Assembly: GCA_963820525.1 (NCBI GenBank)
Contig: CAWGAA010000002.1
Location: 640,001-704,000, forward strand
Reading direction: 5' to 3'
Source: an uncultured Spirochaetota bacterium
Lineage (GTDB): Bacteria; Spirochaetota; Spirochaetia; SZUA-6; Fen-1364
DNA: 64,000 nt
Under the pieces are notes generated by a model that was not told the origin of the DNA, ran no database searches, and saw only the letters and a list, made by a program, of their open reading frames with translations. A program made the position numbers and the translations under genes. Below are positions 13,226-45,397 of this stretch, in pieces (positions within the stretch are counted from its first letter, which is position 1; each line of letters begins with the position of its first letter).

Positions 13226-13252
13226 CAGAGAAAGAGTGCGGTCATGAGTCCT

Positions 13253-14551
13253 CTACCGCCAGATCGCGTAGAGCGTCAGGGACGCTGCCAGTGTGGTGAG
13301 CACGGTGAACGGCCCGCCCACCCTGAGCCACCGCGCAAAGCTCACGGAGCGGCCCTCCTTCTTGACCATGCCCACCGCCACTATGTTGGCGGAAGCGCCG
13401 AAGGGCGTAAGGTTCCCGCCCAGGCAGGATCCAATGAGCAGCCCGAACATGAGAAGCTCGCCGTTGACGCCCAGGGAGCGCGCCAGGCCGCTGGCCACGG
13501 GCAGCATGGCGATGATGTAGGGCACGTTGTCCACGAAGCCGGAGATCAACACGGACACGACCACCATGACCACGAAGCCCATGACGAGGTTACCCCCGAT
13601 GACGCCGGAGAGGAGGCCCGCCAGATCGTCCAGCAGACCGATGTCCGCGATGGCGCCGATCACGATGAAGACACCGATCAGGAAAAGGATGGTTTCCCAG
13701 TCCAGGCGCTTCAAGAGCTCTCGCGCTTTGGACAAGGGCTCCTGCCGCAACAGGAGAAACCATGCCAGGCCCAAGACGGCCAGAACCATGCAGAGGATGC
13801 CGGAGCTTGCGTGCAGACCTTCCGACGTAATAAAGGAAATCAGGGCCAGACCCATGATCATGGCAGCGAGAAGCGCCGTAGGTACCCAGGACACCACCTT
13901 CTCCACGGGGAGGTCCAGGTGAACCTTCGGGAGCTTCCGGAAGTAGCCGTAGAAGTAGAGGGCTCCCGCGATCGCGCCCACCTGGACCACGAAGAAAATG
14001 GACAGCCTTCCGCCGTATACGAAGAAATCGTTGAACCCGAAGCCCGCGTAGGATGCGAATATCATGGAGGGTGGGTCGCCCACCAGGGTGGCGGTGCCCT
14101 GCAGATTGGCCATGACCGCGAGGCCGATTATGAAGGGGGTCGGGTCGATCTTGACCCGACGGCAGATCTCCAGGGCGATGGGAGCCATGAGCATGACCGT
14201 GGCCACGTTTTCCACGAACGCGGAGACGAACCCCGTGATCACCAGGATCGCCACGATGGCGATCCCCAGCGTTGGAGAGCGGTCCACTACCTGGTCCGCC
14301 AGTGCCGCCGGCACGCGCGAATAGATGAATAGATCCGCGATCACCAGGCTGCCAATATAGATTGCAAGGATGTTCCAGTTCACGAGCTCGCCCAAGGCCC
14401 GGCCCACGGATACGGCACCCGAACCGGGGAACAGGATGCCCGCCGCGAGCGTCAAGGCGGCGGTGCAGAGCGCGATGATCGCCTTTTTCTGGATGAACAC
14501 GACGACCAGACCGTACATGACCAGGGCAACCACCAGGATGAATAGCTTCAC
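13253..14551 (-). CDS. Ion-transporter superfamily permease (ArsB/NhaD/SLC13/CitMHS-like)
   Basis: SAFVENVATV, ANLQGTATLVGDPPS, SGFVDNVP, GGNLTPFGASAN; GTG start 14551 after SD ggagga. Confidence 0.9.
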   Translation of the reverse strand: MKLFILVVALVMYGLVVVFIQKKAIIALCTAALTLAAGILFPGSGAVSVGRALGELVNWNILAIYIGSLVIADLFIYSRVPAALADQVVDRSPTLGIAIVAILVITGFVSAFVENVATVMLMAPIALEICRRVKIDPTPFIIGLAVMANLQGTATLVGDPPSMIFASYAGFGFNDFFVYGGRLSIFFVVQVGAIAGALYFYGYFRKLPKVHLDLPVEKVVSWVPTALLAAMIMGLALISFITSEGLHASSGILCMVLAVLGLAWFLLLRQEPLSKARELLKRLDWETILFLIGVFIVIGAIADIGLLDDLAGLLSGVIGGNLVMGFVVMVVVSVLISGFVDNVPYIIAMLPVASGLARSLGVNGELLMFGLLIGSCLGGNLTPFGASANIVAVGMVKKEGRSVSFARWLRVGGPFTVLTTLAASLTLYAIWR

Positions 14552-14579
14552 GGTGATCCTCCAAGATCCGAGGCGTTTT

Positions 14580-14685
14580 GCTACGGTCTTGCCTATCCGT
14601 GGTGGATTGGAACAGCCGGAAACCCTTGGGTTCCGTGTTGACGACTTGTTCTTCCGCTTTGGGCGGCAGGCTACTCCCCGCTGGC
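14580..14685 (-). ncRNA. yybP-ykoY manganese riboswitch
   Basis: Minus strand reads cGGGGAGUAGC...aacaaGUCGUCAACACGG aacc caa gggu uuCCGGC uguu...gGCAAGACCg, i.e. the conserved segments of the motif in order, in the 5' UTR of a transporter. Confidence 0.88.
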
Positions 14686-14842
14686 ACCCGACGATACCAC
14701 GCCTCGGCGCACGCCGCAAGGGATTCGGATGATAGTGTCCGGGAGCGGAGATCAAGCTCTATCCGTTGGACGTTATCGACAGGATCGCGGCCCAAGCGGG
14801 ATTGGCGGTCAGGTCGGGCAACTTGATTCCGGGTTATGATCT

Positions 14843-16096
14843 TTAATCCATCGGTATCCGAGCCTCAACGACAACGCCCGTCTCCACCGTGAAACCGGCG
14901 TCGCCGGAAGGCGCATTTTCATCCATGTCGCTTCGGGCGAGGCGGACGTGCTTTTCCTTTTCCAGTGCGGCCAGCAGCTCCGGCTTCGGTATGCCGGCCC
15001 ACTGATCCCTCTGGATCGTGGATGCCATCGCCCATGCGCCGTCAGGAAGGAGGCTCTCGACGAAGCTCCTGGGCGTGGCGTTCTCGCTTCCGTGGTGCCC
15101 GATCTTGTAGAACCGGGTTTGTTTTAAAATATCCGCCCATCTTGGGTCTTTCATCGCGGTTGTCCACGTTCCCCATTGCGCATCGCCTGCGAAGAGCAGG
15201 TGCGTGCCCGCCATTTCCAGAACGAGCATAAGGCTCGTCCCGTTGACGGCCTGATCGAGCGCCACCACGGCTTCGAGGTCCGAGAATTGCGTGGAGCTTC
15301 TGATTTTTTGCCTGTCCTCCTCGGGAAAGGATGCACCCGAAGGCTCTCCGTGCTCGATGAACTGTTCCGCGAATGGGGCCCTGGGCTTGCCCGTCTCGTC
15401 GAGCGCGGCGGCATTGAGCCGCAGGTAGGTTTCCCCCTTCGGAGGCAGCATGTCGCGAATCACGTCCTTGTTCCGGGAAGGGCCCAGCGCGTGAATCGTA
15501 ACGCCGGGAAGGGCCTTTGATTCAAAGCTGCGCTCCGCTGGATCCTCGGCCGGGAGGAATCGCCTCCGCGCGCGGCCCTTGAACCCCGAATGAAGGGTGC
15601 GCATCGCCTTCTCGTTGGTGAGCGCGTTGCTCACCATCTCGGCAAACGCAGCCTCCACGGGATTTCCCGCCGCTGCTTTCGCCTGGAGAGAGGCGCTCAA
15701 GGCGAGGGCAAGCCTGCTCTGAGTCTCGCGGATCTCCCGCGCCTGCGGATCCGTCGGATCCTCGGTCCACGGAAGCCAGACCTCGCCTACCTCAACGCTT
15801 GCCCAGATGCCTTCCTCGAAACCCGAGACGTGGTCGCGATGCCGATGGGTGACCACCACGACGTCGATGCGAGGGACCCCGTCCGTCGAGGTGGCGTCCT
15901 TCACTATCCTGCTCACAACCTCGGACAGATTCCGTCCGGGAGCCGGGGCGATTGTCCCGCAGTCGAAGAGGATCCGTTTCACCCCGTCATCCGCCGGGAC
16001 GGTGACCAGGAATGCATCGCCGAAGCCGACATTGTACATTCGTACCGAGACGTGACGGGAATCTGCGCCATGGGCTGAAATCGAATGTTTTGACAT
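14843..16096 (-). CDS. Standalone MBL-fold metallo-hydrolase (ComEC/Rec2-type nuclease-like domain)
   Basis: NVGFGDAFL, ILFDCG, THRHRDH (HxHxDH), NGTSL, LLFAGDAQ, KIGHHGSENAT; no signal peptide or TM segment. Confidence 0.88.
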   Translation of the reverse strand: MSKHSISAHGADSRHVSVRMYNVGFGDAFLVTVPADDGVKRILFDCGTIAPAPGRNLSEVVSRIVKDATSTDGVPRIDVVVVTHRHRDHVSGFEEGIWASVEVGEVWLPWTEDPTDPQAREIRETQSRLALALSASLQAKAAAGNPVEAAFAEMVSNALTNEKAMRTLHSGFKGRARRRFLPAEDPAERSFESKALPGVTIHALGPSRNKDVIRDMLPPKGETYLRLNAAALDETGKPRAPFAEQFIEHGEPSGASFPEEDRQKIRSSTQFSDLEAVVALDQAVNGTSLMLVLEMAGTHLLFAGDAQWGTWTTAMKDPRWADILKQTRFYKIGHHGSENATPRSFVESLLPDGAWAMASTIQRDQWAGIPKPELLAALEKEKHVRLARSDMDENAPSGDAGFTVETGVVVEARIPMD

Positions 16097-16098
16097 GG

Positions 16099-17967
16099 CT
16101 ATCCTCGGTGCAGCGCGGAGAAGTTGGCGAGCGCCGCGATGCGGTTTGAGTGTTCATCCGGGCTCATGTAAGGGGTGTTCGCGTTCATCGCATCGGCCAT
16201 GGCGACGAAACGCCGCTGCCGGCAGTATCTCGCGTCCGCGGCTTGAGCCATCTGGGCAATGCCGGAGCGATCGAAGGGCTTGGTGATCACGTAGCGGACC
16301 ATGCCCTCGGCCGATGCAATGATGGTTGCTCCGCCCCGGAACGGCACACCGCCGAACCTCTGCCGCTCGCCGGCGTCCTGTTGGGCGAACTGCGCCACAA
16401 GCTCTATCAGCAGCCGGCCGTTGGGCGCCACGCGGAACACGGGATGGAATCCGCGAACCTGGATCTTTCGAGGCGGCGTGGGGTCGAACCCGAGCGCCTG
16501 TGCGTTCGCTTGAGCGTACTGGGCGAGCTGACGCGCGAACTCCTCGTTCAAGTCGAGCTGGAATTCCTCTCCCTGGTCCTCCGAGGTGTACTGTGCGGGT
16601 GAGGCGAGCGCGGAGGGAAGCGTGTAGCTGGACGGAGATTCCCACCCGCCCGTATCGAATGATCTGATGGCCTGGAAAAAAACGTCTTGGAGAAGGGCCA
16701 CCGCCTCCGTTCCGATGGGTGGAAGAGGAGGGGAAGGAGTGGGCCAGAGCAGGGACTCCTCGGCCAGGGACGATACCCCATCGGGATAGATGCCGCGAAG
16801 GCGGAATGCCTCGATCATGGCGTCGCGCAGGTCGGGATCGTCCTGGATCAGCTCGTAATCCGCGGTGACAAGGGCGCGCAGGAAGTCTCCAAAGGTGACG
16901 TCCACGGGCGGCAGATACTCGAAGGCACGGATGCACATATCCACCACGCGCTGGGCCGTCTTCGCCGCCTCGGAGGCGATCCTGTTCACGAGATCGGGAT
17001 GGAGGTCACCTGAGGGAAGCTGGCCGGTGCCGCCGGTGGCGATGCGGATGAGGTCGTAGATCCGCTTCTGGTACGCCTTGTGATAGCCGTCGAACACCGC
17101 AGCCACAAGGACGGAGCCCCTGTCGTGCGGCTCCAGAAGCGAATCTGAAAGCTTCGTGCCGGGGGCATCGAGTGCGGAGCGCAGCGCCTTGCCGCTTCCT
17201 GTCGCGTAGCCGAACTGGCGGGCCAGCTCGATCAGAGGCTTCGCGGTTCTGATGTCGCTTCGCGTCCTCTGGATATGCTCGCGCAGGATGTCGGGGTAGG
17301 AGAAGTGCTGGAACAGGGCCACGATATCGGCGAATCCCTCATGGAAGGCCAGGACATCCTCGTTGGTCGGCTCGAGGAAGAGCGGCCGCAGGCGGTCCAC
17401 CAGGGCATGGGTCATCTCGTGGGTGATAATGTCGTGCGAGAGGCAGGTGAACACGGTCTGGCCCGGGAGGTTGGCCCCGGGATTGGCGGCGTCGGCATGG
17501 AAGTAGCCGAAGAGGATGGCGTTGAGGTCCCGCGAGTAGAAAGCGTTCGCCCCATAGAATGCATGGGGCAGGAGCCGCAGCTTCCTGTAGGATGAGGCTC
17601 TGCGGCCGACTCCGCTCATCCGCGTGGGATGGCCGAGGGCGCGATCGAAGTTCTCCAGCGTCTTCATCGCCACGGCGTATACCATCTGCTGGTGGAACCT
17701 CGGATCCGACTCCGAAGGCTCGAGGCCGCCCTGCATGAGAACGGCGGCGTTGTTCAGGTCCACGGACTGGTAGAAGCAGTCGCGGGCCCCGTCGTAGTCG
17801 ATGACCTCCAGCCGGGGGCCAACCGGCCCGGGCACGAGGTTCTCGTTGGCCACGTCGATATGGGCGCGGTTTCCGTACGTGCGGCCGAGAAGGGGATCCG
17901 ATGCGAAAATTTTAAGCGGGCGTCGGACGGCCTGGGCTACTCCCTGGATCGGGACCGGTCGCTGCAT
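16099..17967 (-). CDS. Cytoplasmic thermolysin-like (M4/M36-like gluzincin) metallopeptidase
   Basis: NAFY, HEMTH (HExxH), third ligand in FHEGFADI, EPH at the thermolysin His-equivalent position; RBS aaaggagg; no signal peptide. Confidence 0.85.
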   Translation of the reverse strand: MQRPVPIQGVAQAVRRPLKIFASDPLLGRTYGNRAHIDVANENLVPGPVGPRLEVIDYDGARDCFYQSVDLNNAAVLMQGGLEPSESDPRFHQQMVYAVAMKTLENFDRALGHPTRMSGVGRRASSYRKLRLLPHAFYGANAFYSRDLNAILFGYFHADAANPGANLPGQTVFTCLSHDIITHEMTHALVDRLRPLFLEPTNEDVLAFHEGFADIVALFQHFSYPDILREHIQRTRSDIRTAKPLIELARQFGYATGSGKALRSALDAPGTKLSDSLLEPHDRGSVLVAAVFDGYHKAYQKRIYDLIRIATGGTGQLPSGDLHPDLVNRIASEAAKTAQRVVDMCIRAFEYLPPVDVTFGDFLRALVTADYELIQDDPDLRDAMIEAFRLRGIYPDGVSSLAEESLLWPTPSPPLPPIGTEAVALLQDVFFQAIRSFDTGGWESPSSYTLPSALASPAQYTSEDQGEEFQLDLNEEFARQLAQYAQANAQALGFDPTPPRKIQVRGFHPVFRVAPNGRLLIELVAQFAQQDAGERQRFGGVPFRGGATIIASAEGMVRYVITKPFDRSGIAQMAQAADARYCRQRRFVAMADAMNANTPYMSPDEHSNRIAALANFSALHRG

Positions 17968-18111
17968 GGCCGTGCCTCCTTTAAACCTTTTCTATCGAAC
18001 TTTCGCTCGGAGCATACCAACAAACGGGAAAAAGCGAAAGAGGCCATGAGTGAATTGAGGGATCTGCCGCCGCCTGGTATACTCCCCCGGTGTGAAAGCG
18101 GGGTGAATGCC

Positions 18112-18753
18112 ATGAAAAACGGTCTCAAACGTTTATTCGCTTCAGGCGTGCTCCAGACGGGATGGATCAACGCAGCAGCCTGCGTCGTGCTTGCCGTCGG
18201 CGTATATTTCTCCAGCACGATCTATACGGGGCTGAACCATGGCCCGGCCGTGCTCCACCTTCAAACGGCCATCGACAGGGCTCTTCCCGTGGTACCCATC
18301 TTCGTCATTCCCTACGTCTCCCTGGAGCCCTATATCTATTTCAGCCTTGTTGTATTTCTCATATTCCGCACGCGAACCTTTCAATCAGCGTGCCTGGCCA
18401 TGATCGTGACATTCTTCGTAAGCTACTTCTTCTACTACTTCCTCCAGACCGAGGTGATTCGACCGGTCTTGACCGCCAACGATATGCTCACCCGCATGAT
18501 CCGGGACGTGTATGCCGGGGACAACCCGTTCAACGATTTTCCCAGCCTCCATACCTCGACATCCACGATCATCGCCATCCACTGGTTCCGCCTGGACCGG
18601 CGTCTGGGCATCGTGGCCGCCGCGTGGACTGCGCTCATCGTGGCCTCCACGGTTCTCGTCAAGCAGCATTACATCGCGGACCTCGGAGCCGGCCTCCTGC
18701 TCGCCTTTGCCGCTTCGCTTCTTTTCATGAGGCTGCTGCCGCAGAAGCGCTGA
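18112..18753 (+). CDS. PAP2-superfamily membrane protein (PAP2_3/AUR1 IPC-synthase-like)
   Basis: RP...D.PFNDFPSLH and STVLVKQHYIADL motifs; several TM helices. Confidence 0.8.
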   Translation: MKNGLKRLFASGVLQTGWINAAACVVLAVGVYFSSTIYTGLNHGPAVLHLQTAIDRALPVVPIFVIPYVSLEPYIYFSLVVFLIFRTRTFQSACLAMIVTFFVSYFFYYFLQTEVIRPVLTANDMLTRMIRDVYAGDNPFNDFPSLHTSTSTIIAIHWFRLDRRLGIVAAAWTALIVASTVLVKQHYIADLGAGLLLAFAASLLFMRLLPQKR

Positions 18754-43906: not shown

Positions 43907-45397
43907 ATGATCCGCCGTCACGTTTCCGCAGCTCTGGTCGCTTTCACCGCCGTGCTGGCAACGTGCCTCGCCCGTCCCCTGTTTGCGGGCGCTCCCGAGC
44001 TCGTTCTCCTGCCGGCCGCCGCGGCCGCTTCCCTGGCCATCGTTCTCCTCGGATCCGAGCCCGAGAGGGTCAGGCGTGCGGGAGTCCTTGCTTTCGGCGC
44101 ATGCGCGGGGCTTGTCCTTGGATTCGTGCTGCTTCAGCGCATGGAGATCGGGCAGCTTCGCTCTGCGCCCCCGATGAGCCTTTCGCAGATATCCCGCTTC
44201 GCCGGCTCCCTCAGGCAGGACAGCGTGCTTTCCCGCGATTCAAGGACGCTCCTTCGCGTTTCTCTCTCCAGCGCCTCCTCCCGGATGGGGGTGACAGCTT
44301 CCGCCCGCGGGAATGCCCTGGTTGTGATGGAAGGAGACTACCGCTTCTCCCTGGGGCAGGAACTGGAGTTCCACTCGACCCTGAAGCCGTTTTCCGGGGA
44401 GGGGAGCGAATCGTACGTTTCGTTCGTCAGGCGCGACGAGGTACGGTCCATGGGATATTCCCGTGCCCTCTGGGCCGGGCGCGCGCGTCTCCGGGAAGAG
44501 GCCCACAATGCCTTGAGCCGTCTCGGGTTTCCGGCTTCCGCCCTCCTGGAGGCGCTCCTGTTGGGAAGCAGGGAGGACATTCCGGCGGATCTCGCCGACG
44601 GATTCAGGAAAACGGGAAGTCTTCATATCCTGGCCCTCTCTGGTCTTCATGCGGGCATCGTCTACGCTTTTATCGCGTTCCTGCTCCGAGCTTTGAAAAA
44701 CAGGACGGTGAAATTCCTCCTTGCAACCGCGGTCCTCGCCTTCTACCAGTTCCTTGCCGGGCCCATCCCATCGCTTGTACGCGCGACGCTGATGCTCGTG
44801 ACGGCGGGCATCGCGCTTCTCCTGGACCGGGACGCGGAGCCGCTCAACCTCCTTTCCATTGCAGGATTGCTCATCCTCGTCATGGGCCCGTACCAGGCAT
44901 GGAGCCTTTCCTTCCAGCTTTCGCTGCTCGCCATGCTGGGGATCCTTGCGGTTTCACCGCTTCTCTCCAGGCCCTTTCAGGGGCGGCTGCCCCCGGTGCT
45001 TCTCTCGCCGCTCGCCATGGCGGCCTCGGCTCAGCTTGCCACGCTGCCCATTGCTGTCCTGGCCTTCGGCGTCTACTACCCATCGGGGCTTCTCGCGGGG
45101 CTCGCCCTCGTGCCCCTGACAACGATCCTGTTGTGGATAGGGCTTCTCTGGCTCGTTCTCTCGCCGATCTTCGGGCCGGCGCTTCAAGGCGCGGCGGGCT
45201 GGGCCGCCAACGGCGTGTACGCTCTCGTCTCTGAGACGGCGCGGTTCTTCTCCGCGGTTCCTGGAATCTCCGTGGCAGAGGATGCGGCGCCCTGGGTGGC
45301 GGGCATCTCCGCCCTGGCCCTGCTGGCTTTCTGCATTTTTCCCCTGGCGCATGCGAGGAAACGCGCGGCAATCCGGCTGGAGCGCGCCGCATCGTGA
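43907..45397 (+). CDS. comEC: ComEC/Rec2 competence membrane protein (no C-terminal MBL domain)
   Basis: ALLLG, FRKTGSLHILALSGLH, SLVRA, SFQLS; multi-TM. Confidence 0.88.
   Translation: MIRRHVSAALVAFTAVLATCLARPLFAGAPELVLLPAAAAASLAIVLLGSEPERVRRAGVLAFGACAGLVLGFVLLQRMEIGQLRSAPPMSLSQISRFAGSLRQDSVLSRDSRTLLRVSLSSASSRMGVTASARGNALVVMEGDYRFSLGQELEFHSTLKPFSGEGSESYVSFVRRDEVRSMGYSRALWAGRARLREEAHNALSRLGFPASALLEALLLGSREDIPADLADGFRKTGSLHILALSGLHAGIVYAFIAFLLRALKNRTVKFLLATAVLAFYQFLAGPIPSLVRATLMLVTAGIALLLDRDAEPLNLLSIAGLLILVMGPYQAWSLSFQLSLLAMLGILAVSPLLSRPFQGRLPPVLLSPLAMAASAQLATLPIAVLAFGVYYPSGLLAGLALVPLTTILLWIGLLWLVLSPIFGPALQGAAGWAANGVYALVSETARFFSAVPGISVAEDAAPWVAGISALALLAFCIFPLAHARKRAAIRLERAAS

Follow-up and report, generated by a model that had tools for sequence, protein, structure and literature searches.

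A zinc metallopeptidase and a ComEC-type hydrolase form a widespread two-gene module, probably a protease-switched killing module

Introduction

A stretch of DNA from an uncultured Spirochaetota bacterium (GenBank assembly GCA_963820525.1, contig CAWGAA010000002.1, positions 640,001 to 704,000; the whole 64,000 nucleotides are referred to as the window) carries two adjacent genes on its minus strand. The first encodes a zinc metallopeptidase of 622 residues (open reading frame 17967-16099), the second a ComEC-type hydrolase of the metallo-β-lactamase (MBL) fold with 417 residues (16096-14843). We find that the pair is a real, widespread module and a variant of the protease-gated MBL modules, and that it is probably a protease-switched killing module of the anti-phage kind. 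The original prediction, made from the letters of the window alone, had described a leaderless thermolysin-like gluzincin with NAFY, HEMTH, HEGFAD and EPH motifs, followed 2 nucleotides later by a standalone ComEC-type MBL protein with HxHxDH, GD and HHGS motifs and no transmembrane segment or signal peptide. All of these motifs, the M4 and ComEC folds and the TAG-cc-ATG gene junction are confirmed here.

If the reading is right, a zinc metalloprotease would be a fourth class of activator for gated MBL effectors, beside trypsin, caspase and subtilisin. The minimal two-gene form, with no recognisable sensor, raises the question of how such a module is triggered. The reading also offers a hypothesis of function for a peptidase family of thousands of members that is unrecognised by Pfam, NCBIfam and PADLOC.

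Results and Discussion

Inheritance of the pair

The co-occurrence of homologues, proposed as a check by the original prediction, holds on both sides of the pair. Among the 78 closest GTDB loci the MBL gene lies directly after the peptidase gene in all 68 that could be judged (10 were too short), and in metagenome loci anchored on the MBL gene the peptidase lies upstream in 63 of the 65 judgeable cases, 15 of the 80 loci being too short. Two orphan MBL genes of the family (L101:3367-4659 and L144:5300-6562) have no upstream peptidase. Even samples were drawn from phyla to reduce the bias towards close relatives, giving tallies, with centre genomes and weak matches counted, of 9/401, 21/301, 5/351 (a tally that takes in two unpublished genomes) and 7/351; the second is that of the Acidobacteriota, in which the family is commonest among the sampled phyla. 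From non-centre genomes 38 regions were fetched, of which 15 contained an unfused family peptidase, 14 of them with the MBL gene, while 13 contained a peptidase fused to an S8 domain, six of them with the MBL gene (three being close kin). The remaining 10 contained a weakly matching, shorter M4/M36-like protein, none with an MBL gene. In 20 evenly sampled pairs the S8 domain was fused ahead of the M4-like domain in six; the other 14, like the pair in the window, are without it.

The adjacency in the window is not an assembly artefact, since a 6,947-base contig from another sequencing run covers both genes (116 differences). This genome has one copy of each gene. The sequence AGGAGG precedes the peptidase ATG, and GAGG lies within the last peptidase codons, ahead of the MBL ATG.

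Trees of the two proteins, built with FastTree, are congruent over 11 phyla. Patristic distances correlate with r 0.90 over 69 pairs (permutation maximum 0.13), a value inflated by close kin and by two deep clades, and 27 of 34 strong splits in the peptidase tree recur in the MBL tree. Phylum labels change 23 times along the tree, where the minimum would be 10 and shuffled labels average 36.4, so the host tree does not explain the agreement between peptidase and MBL. The nearest tree relatives of the peptidase in the window come from Acidobacteriota and Pseudomonadota, and the peptidase is present in only 1 of 40 relatives and in none of 400 other genomes of the host phylum; this sparse distribution points to horizontal acquisition of the pair by its host. 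Plasmid records matching the peptidase number 65. A full-length family peptidase of 47% identity also occurs in an unannotated 9.5-kb record from a phage collection (MT836994.1:4204-5898).

Some variants of the module were seen. In one locus (L120:2-1660) a single reading frame runs from the C-terminal half of a peptidase into the MBL protein, which is either a natural fusion or a sequencing error. Seven S8-M4 fusions of approximately 1,170-1,360 residues (L237-L243) have no MBL gene and a 57-64 loop, part of the predicted docking site described below, that is altered; these may be one clade with a different substrate.

A leaderless peptidase of the thermolysin fold

The peptidase (16099..17967) matched nothing in Pfam, including the M4 and caspase families, or in NCBIfam, PADLOC or the PDB sequences. 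Its model (predicted local distance difference test, pLDDT, 71.5) contains a thermolysin-fold catalytic domain at residues 44-396 (16780..17838), which VIA-align superimposes on mature LasB with Z 16.1 and a root-mean-square deviation (rmsd) of 3.9 over 254 aligned residues. Thermolysin (Z 15.9) and M36 (15.5) follow closely and the next family reaches 9.7, at sequence identities to M4/M36 relatives of 11-15%. The zinc site comprises the HEMTH motif at residues 183-187 (17407..17421; H183, E184 and H187) and HEGFAD at 209-214 (17326..17343), which holds the third zinc ligand E210 and D214; NAFY lies at 141-144 and EPH at 279-281. Among 119 full-length copies, 118 retain H183, E184, H187, E210, D214 and H281, the exception at HEMTH being an alignment gap. 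The family is large, with at least 7,983 homologues (7,983 of 8,000 scored candidates).

Classical M4 enzymes carry a signal peptide and an FTP/PepSY propeptide. The peptidase shares with family M4 (thermolysin, LasB, protealysin) and M36 the fold and the catalytic set of HExxH, glutamate and histidine, but differs in having no leader or propeptide, approximately 220 extra C-terminal residues and no Pfam M4 match. The LasB match starts at mature LasB residue 27, leaving no room for an N-terminal propeptide, and a Kyte-Doolittle heuristic found no hydrophobic leader or transmembrane stretch; only 1 of 120 homologues exceeded the N-terminal cut-off. The same heuristic found neither feature in the MBL protein, nor any of 120 homologues over the cut-off. 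A cytoplasmic location for both proteins is therefore supported by their sequences, and export of the peptidase, which would have counted against the original prediction, is not indicated.

The long non-catalytic C-terminal region that had been noted in the peptidase is a family-specific one. On secondary structure and conservation, residues 400-622 (16102..16770) start with a variable linker, continue with an alpha/beta domain of four strands and close with a conserved F-A-x-L-H tail, whose H620 is present in 88 of 119 rows, 23 rows being gapped. The domain gave no usable Atlas match and no PDB sequence match, with nothing found outside its own family, and its best 150 representative matches all carry it at their C-terminal end. 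Tandem peptidase fusions or gene pairs are common (for example L063:1646-5170, and in L014, L021, L029 and L104), and the 120 best longer homologues (P0241-P0360) are all tandem fusions. In these the C-terminal copy keeps Y66, P89 and E184 in 120/120, while the extra copy is without the tail and keeps Y66 in 31, P89 in 91 and E184 in 83. The catalytic glutamate of this first copy is lost in 37 of the 120 (to glutamine in 28), as in a pseudo-enzyme.

An MBL hydrolase with two insertions

The MBL protein (14843..16096), a candidate gated pro-effector, was modelled with a pLDDT of 88.7, and its best fold match is the ComEC nuclease domain (Z 22.8, rmsd 3.1, 256 of 266 residues aligned). The second is the phosphorylcholine esterase Pce (Z 20.6). 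The HRHRDH metal motif at residues 84-89 (15830..15847) is found in 174 of 175 family members, the GD motif lies at 304-305, and the HHGS motif at 334-337 (15086..15097), kept in 175/175, provides through H334, H335 and S337 the equivalents of ComEC H725 and S728. H84, H86, D88, H89, N285, D305, H334 and H335 are each kept in 174-175 of 175, and two conserved tryptophans, W311 and W366, lie close to the site. In sequence the protein matches Avs1a, 6A-MBL and the PADLOC LmuA profile weakly.

The ComEC nuclease domain (PDB 9ic4; PMC12455585, from the portions of that paper available) shares the fold, the metal ligands and the H725/S728 equivalents, and all of its residues tested there for nuclease activity have equivalents here. 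Unlike ComEC, the protein is a stand-alone soluble one of 417 residues, with no membrane competence domain and with approximately 150 extra residues in two insertions. Insertion 1 is helical and covers approximately residues 112-175 (15572..15763), the H89-P206 spacing being 117 here, 108-176 in 174 members and 62 in ComEC. Insertion 2, approximately residues 207-284 (15245..15478), has a conserved P241-F242 and I265 and also lies in the interface described below; its P206-N285 spacing is 79 here, 70-148 in the family and approximately 13 in ComEC. The ComEC references for these spacings are ComEC proteins from two loci. Counted by eye, the equivalent spacings are 109 and 74 in HamM, and the first is 116 in Avs1a. 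In size and position the two insertions resemble the loops that gate the pro-nucleases HamM, Avs1a and CanC. Insertion 2 has the lowest pLDDT of the MBL fold.

Thermolysin-type enzymes cut before hydrophobic residues, and for this reason, together with spacing, L159 and I265 are candidate cut sites. The HamM I118 and Avs1a I134 cut sites, as given in the available portions of the pro-nuclease papers cited below, map by spacing to approximately 157-159, and HamM I218 to approximately 262-265. Of 174 rows, 159 have I, L or V at position 265; L159 is less constant.

A predicted complex

Modelling of the complex, another check that had been suggested, came out in favour of contact. The peptidase and MBL protein scored 0.68 together, while the best of three controls scored 0.00; runs agreed in at least 92% of contacts, with partner pLDDT of at least 80. 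Solved pairs attain the mark used for this score in 116 of 157 cases and mismatched pairs in 2 of 215, a calibration that is roughly applicable here. On the MBL side the interface consists of insertion 2 (223-282) and the active-site rim (307-312, 334-343 and 366-371). On the peptidase side the lowest-error contacts fall at residues 56-89 (17701..17802), where MBL F242 (kept in 167/175) rests on Y66 (116/119) and P89 (119/119). The prediction supports direct binding through insertion 2, and together with linkage and shared descent it makes a dedicated interacting pair very likely. We also considered whether the tail histidine of the peptidase might replace in trans a histidine that is missing from the MBL protein (see below). 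This idea is weakened, as the tail is kept in 7 of 7 S8 fusions that have no MBL gene and H620 is not among the confident contacts.

Relation to known protease-gated MBL modules

The closest parallels are the trypsin-MBL pro-nuclease modules, namely HamMAB, Avs1a/Avs1b, Avs2/Avs4-MBL, Lamassu and DRT (PMC12799240, Tuck et al.; PMC12642450, Evans et al.; bioRxiv 10.1101/2025.09.03.673762; each from the parts of the text available). These likewise combine a neighbouring gene for a partner protease with a ComEC-fold MBL whose two insertions are comparable in size and position, and they share the congruent gene trees and the mobility. Here, in contrast, the protease is an M4-fold zinc gluzincin, unfused to a sensor and encoded upstream of the MBL, and the MBL protein is without the terminal H-P histidine. 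The original prediction had drawn a parallel with AVAST type 1, which is apt as an analogy; the pair itself is not AVAST, as the MBL reaches 43 bits with the Avs1a profile, whose cut-off is 420, and a STAND partner is missing. In AVAST type 1 and HamMAB the trypsin is fused to a STAND, HamA, LmuA or reverse transcriptase sensor, and no such fusion exists here.

Canu (KaeCanABC; PMC12799240, available portions) resembles the pair in having a stand-alone protease with an extra C-terminal domain upstream of a gated MBL. There the protease is a caspase, whereas here it is a metalloprotease with no caspase match, its extra domain matched no Ig-like or TPR family, and no conserved third gene like CanB is found.

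In the available portions of Evans et al. (PMC12642450), three protease classes (trypsin, caspase and S8) are placed beside MBLs, and the clade adjoining S8 is their Clade 3, the published "subtilisin clade". This clade is probably the MBL family described here. In our family S8 occurs as an N-terminal fusion that many members are without, and S8-fused members are annotated "S8 family serine peptidase", so the clade may have been named after an accessory domain of the partner. The constant partner here, unlike in Clade 3 as published, is the M4-like domain, and no S8 domain occurs at this locus. Two supplements of PMC12642450 contained neither the family motifs nor two accessions looked for in them, and the methods of that paper, in the sections available, describe a serine-protease clade set. 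PMC12799240 defines the gated nuclease and, in the parts available, refers to "other diverse families" in its Fig. 4A and fig. S2. The published figures or PDF supplements may already contain this MBL clade, most likely under an S8 label. A metalloprotease partner is not named in the available text of these two papers or of the bioRxiv preprint, nor in the supplements searched, nor in passages of PMC12455585, PMC12419801 and PMC13069673, and our literature searches found no description of the peptidase-MBL pair.

Neighbours on plasmids and lipase genes

Ten plasmid loci were picked for taxonomic spread among the 65 records. In nine of these ten annotated loci defence-type genes lie within 9-12 kb, comprising restriction enzymes, NACHT, SIR2, CBASS, DUF1837 with a helicase, CHAT and ThiF. 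We take the DUF1837 neighbour to be Hachiman, and an ATPase with an S8 protein to be IetAS. In locus L229 a HyoA-like NACHT gene, the pair, a patatin gene and an Avs1a-like MBL gene stand side by side, with the pair between NACHT and MBL. In another locus (L029:13773-21029, minus strand) a second, divergent peptidase-MBL pair is followed on the same strand by SIR2-like and nSTAND1 genes.

Lipase genes recur near the pair. Patatin, long patatin or Tle1-like (DUF2235) genes were found in 24 of the 78 GTDB loci, some of which are close kin, and a patatin, DUF2235 or phospholipase D (PLD) gene lies within two genes of the pair in 7 of the 10 plasmid loci. Patatin and peptidase trees disagree (r 0.12, a value equalled or exceeded in 200 of 999 permutations), so the lipases appear to be exchangeable neighbours. 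The patatin, long patatin and Tle1-like subfamilies have no member in this genome. A patatin as a co-inherited third subunit was rejected on these two grounds.

Proposed mechanism and its difficulties

In the mechanism that we favour, the MBL protein would be made latent, its anatomy suggesting an active site gated by the two insertions, and the zinc peptidase is predicted to bind it through insertion 2 and to cover the face of the active site. A cue, most likely phage infection or the stress that results from it, would prompt the peptidase to cut a gating loop before a hydrophobic residue, which by spacing could be L159 or I265 or could lie in the flexible 223-240 loop. By homology, the target of the released MBL would be an essential phosphodiester, DNA being the most likely, and its destruction would kill or arrest the infected cell. 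The C-terminal domain and tail of the peptidase would be the sole candidates for sensing a trigger within the module, while S8 domains, a second degenerate peptidase copy and lipase genes would be optional add-ons. In the cytoplasmic zinc peptidases Lit and CapP the cue, infection or damage, switches on the enzyme itself and no sensor protein stands between; their targets are EF-Tu or a repressor and not a co-encoded enzyme. Activation of the MBL by cleavage seems to us fairly likely, DNA as its substrate is somewhat favoured, and a role against phages or other elements is slightly favoured. That the pair is a sensor-less protease-gated effector, the metalloprotease counterpart of the trypsin-, caspase- and subtilisin-MBL modules, we put at about even chances.

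The original prediction of a protease and its effector is thus strengthened in so far as the two are a co-evolving, mobile and cytoplasmic pair with a two-insertion MBL and a predicted contact; a defence context is absent at this locus. Proximity to defence genes, a further check, is strong on plasmids (nine of ten annotated loci) and weak on chromosomes, where just 4 of 22 loci have a credible defence neighbour; 6 of 85 neighbours from these loci matched PADLOC, a figure that includes two spurious matches and stands without a random-locus control. Most chromosomal copies, this one included, lie outside defence islands, and a Pfam scan of 40 proteins of the window turned up none that was recognised as a defence protein. 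Neighbourhood comparison found no sensor gene recurring beside the pair, and IMG/VR gave no match to the family. These observations weigh against an anti-phage switch of the kind proposed, and several features of the proteins do so as well. None of the confident contacts involves the zinc site of the peptidase, so what the model shows is docking and not cutting; insertion 1 takes the form of ordered helices in its model; and of the 126 rows with N161 just 55 keep L159. HamM, Avs1a and CanC have a terminal H-P motif, and the place of its histidine is taken by I, M or V in 170 of the 175 family members. Of the 13 S8-fused peptidases, seven have no MBL gene behind them, and a family MBL gene was found elsewhere in none of the five such genomes searched, so the peptidase can persist alone. 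The inflation of the tree correlation by kinship counts on the same side.

Alternative explanations

The loss of the H-P histidine bears on what the MBL might attack. The same protease-gated switch could release an enzyme for membrane phospholipids or another non-DNA phosphodiester, acting with the neighbouring lipases; the frequency of lipase genes in both the GTDB and plasmid loci, the Pce fold match and the conserved W311 and W366 near the site are all consistent with this. The independence of the patatin tree, the want of the three lipase subfamilies in this genome and the presence of equivalents for all nuclease-tested ComEC residues make it unlikely. An elaborate form of this idea is a "hold-and-cut" death switch of two genes without a sensor protein. 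In it the protease would cage the effector in a standing complex and would be held off by its own conserved C-terminal L-H tail, possibly as a fourth zinc ligand, until the tail was displaced, either on a cue from phage or stress or by a fused S8 protease acting in a cascade. The freed MBL, without the DNase-type histidine, would then attack membrane phospholipids alongside patatin, Tle1 and PLD lipases. All parts taken jointly, this is a long shot. If true, it would provide both a metalloprotease-activated immune enzyme and a gated non-DNase MBL, neither of which was found in the literature searched.

The pair could also be a toxin and antitoxin, or an addiction module, in which the peptidase neutralises a toxic MBL by binding or degrading it and activation follows from loss of the peptidase rather than from a gating cut. 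The upstream, translationally coupled peptidase gene, the patchy distribution with plasmid carriage and an interface that covers MBL active-site residues 334, 337-339 and 366-371 would all fit. The orphan MBL genes of L101 and L144 would be hardly tolerable if the MBL were a constitutive toxin, the gating-type insertions suggest a built-in latency, and the catalytic E184 is kept in 118 of 119 peptidases; we regard this explanation as improbable. A protease-gated module with a part in development, programmed lysis or stress other than phage in bacteria of soil and sediment would account for the many chromosomal copies among housekeeping genes, for the family being commonest in Acidobacteriota and for the retention of the pair at this locus in related DNA, one joint of which skips the neighbouring transporter gene. 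A sporadic distribution that crosses phyla and the plasmid copies in defence islands are harder to reconcile with it, and it is not a likely explanation. Finally, protease, phosphodiesterase and lipases are all degradative, and some peptidases occur without an MBL, so the genes could encode independent, co-transcribed hydrolases that scavenge protein, nucleic acid and lipid, possibly after release by lysis. The fixed order, near-perfect linkage and congruent trees, the one apparent fusion (L120), the predicted interface on conserved residues and the lack of export signals make this very improbable. The preferred reading remains that of a protease-gated MBL module.

Surroundings in the window

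As had been noted from the letters alone, the pair sits among unrelated genes, which here are for sugar catabolism, leucine synthesis, fatty-acid synthesis and transport. The base composition of the locus is unremarkable, and no promoter-like site was found upstream of the pair on the minus strand. Gene order at this locus is little shared by relatives, so that an empty insertion site is not definable. In two further sequencing runs, closely related DNA has the pair at this place too.

A ComEC-like gene of 496 residues lies at 43907-45397 on the plus strand, and only its Competence domain was recognised, with no room for an MBL nuclease domain. The idea that the MBL protein is the split-off nuclease of this short ComEC was rejected, as the MBL has no export signal; further, the partner peptidase, which was searched in place of the MBL, was not found in 39 of 40 relatives. 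Directly behind the MBL gene is a gene for a CitMHS/ArsB-type transporter (13253-14755, minus strand), and one contig joint in another sequencing run skips 13228-14840 and retains the pair. The transporter gene may thus be a strain-variable insert, with the pair staying in place. On the other side, a PAP2 phosphatase gene (18040-18753, plus strand) diverges from the peptidase gene, and another PAP2 gene lies near the pair on a Hymenobacter plasmid.

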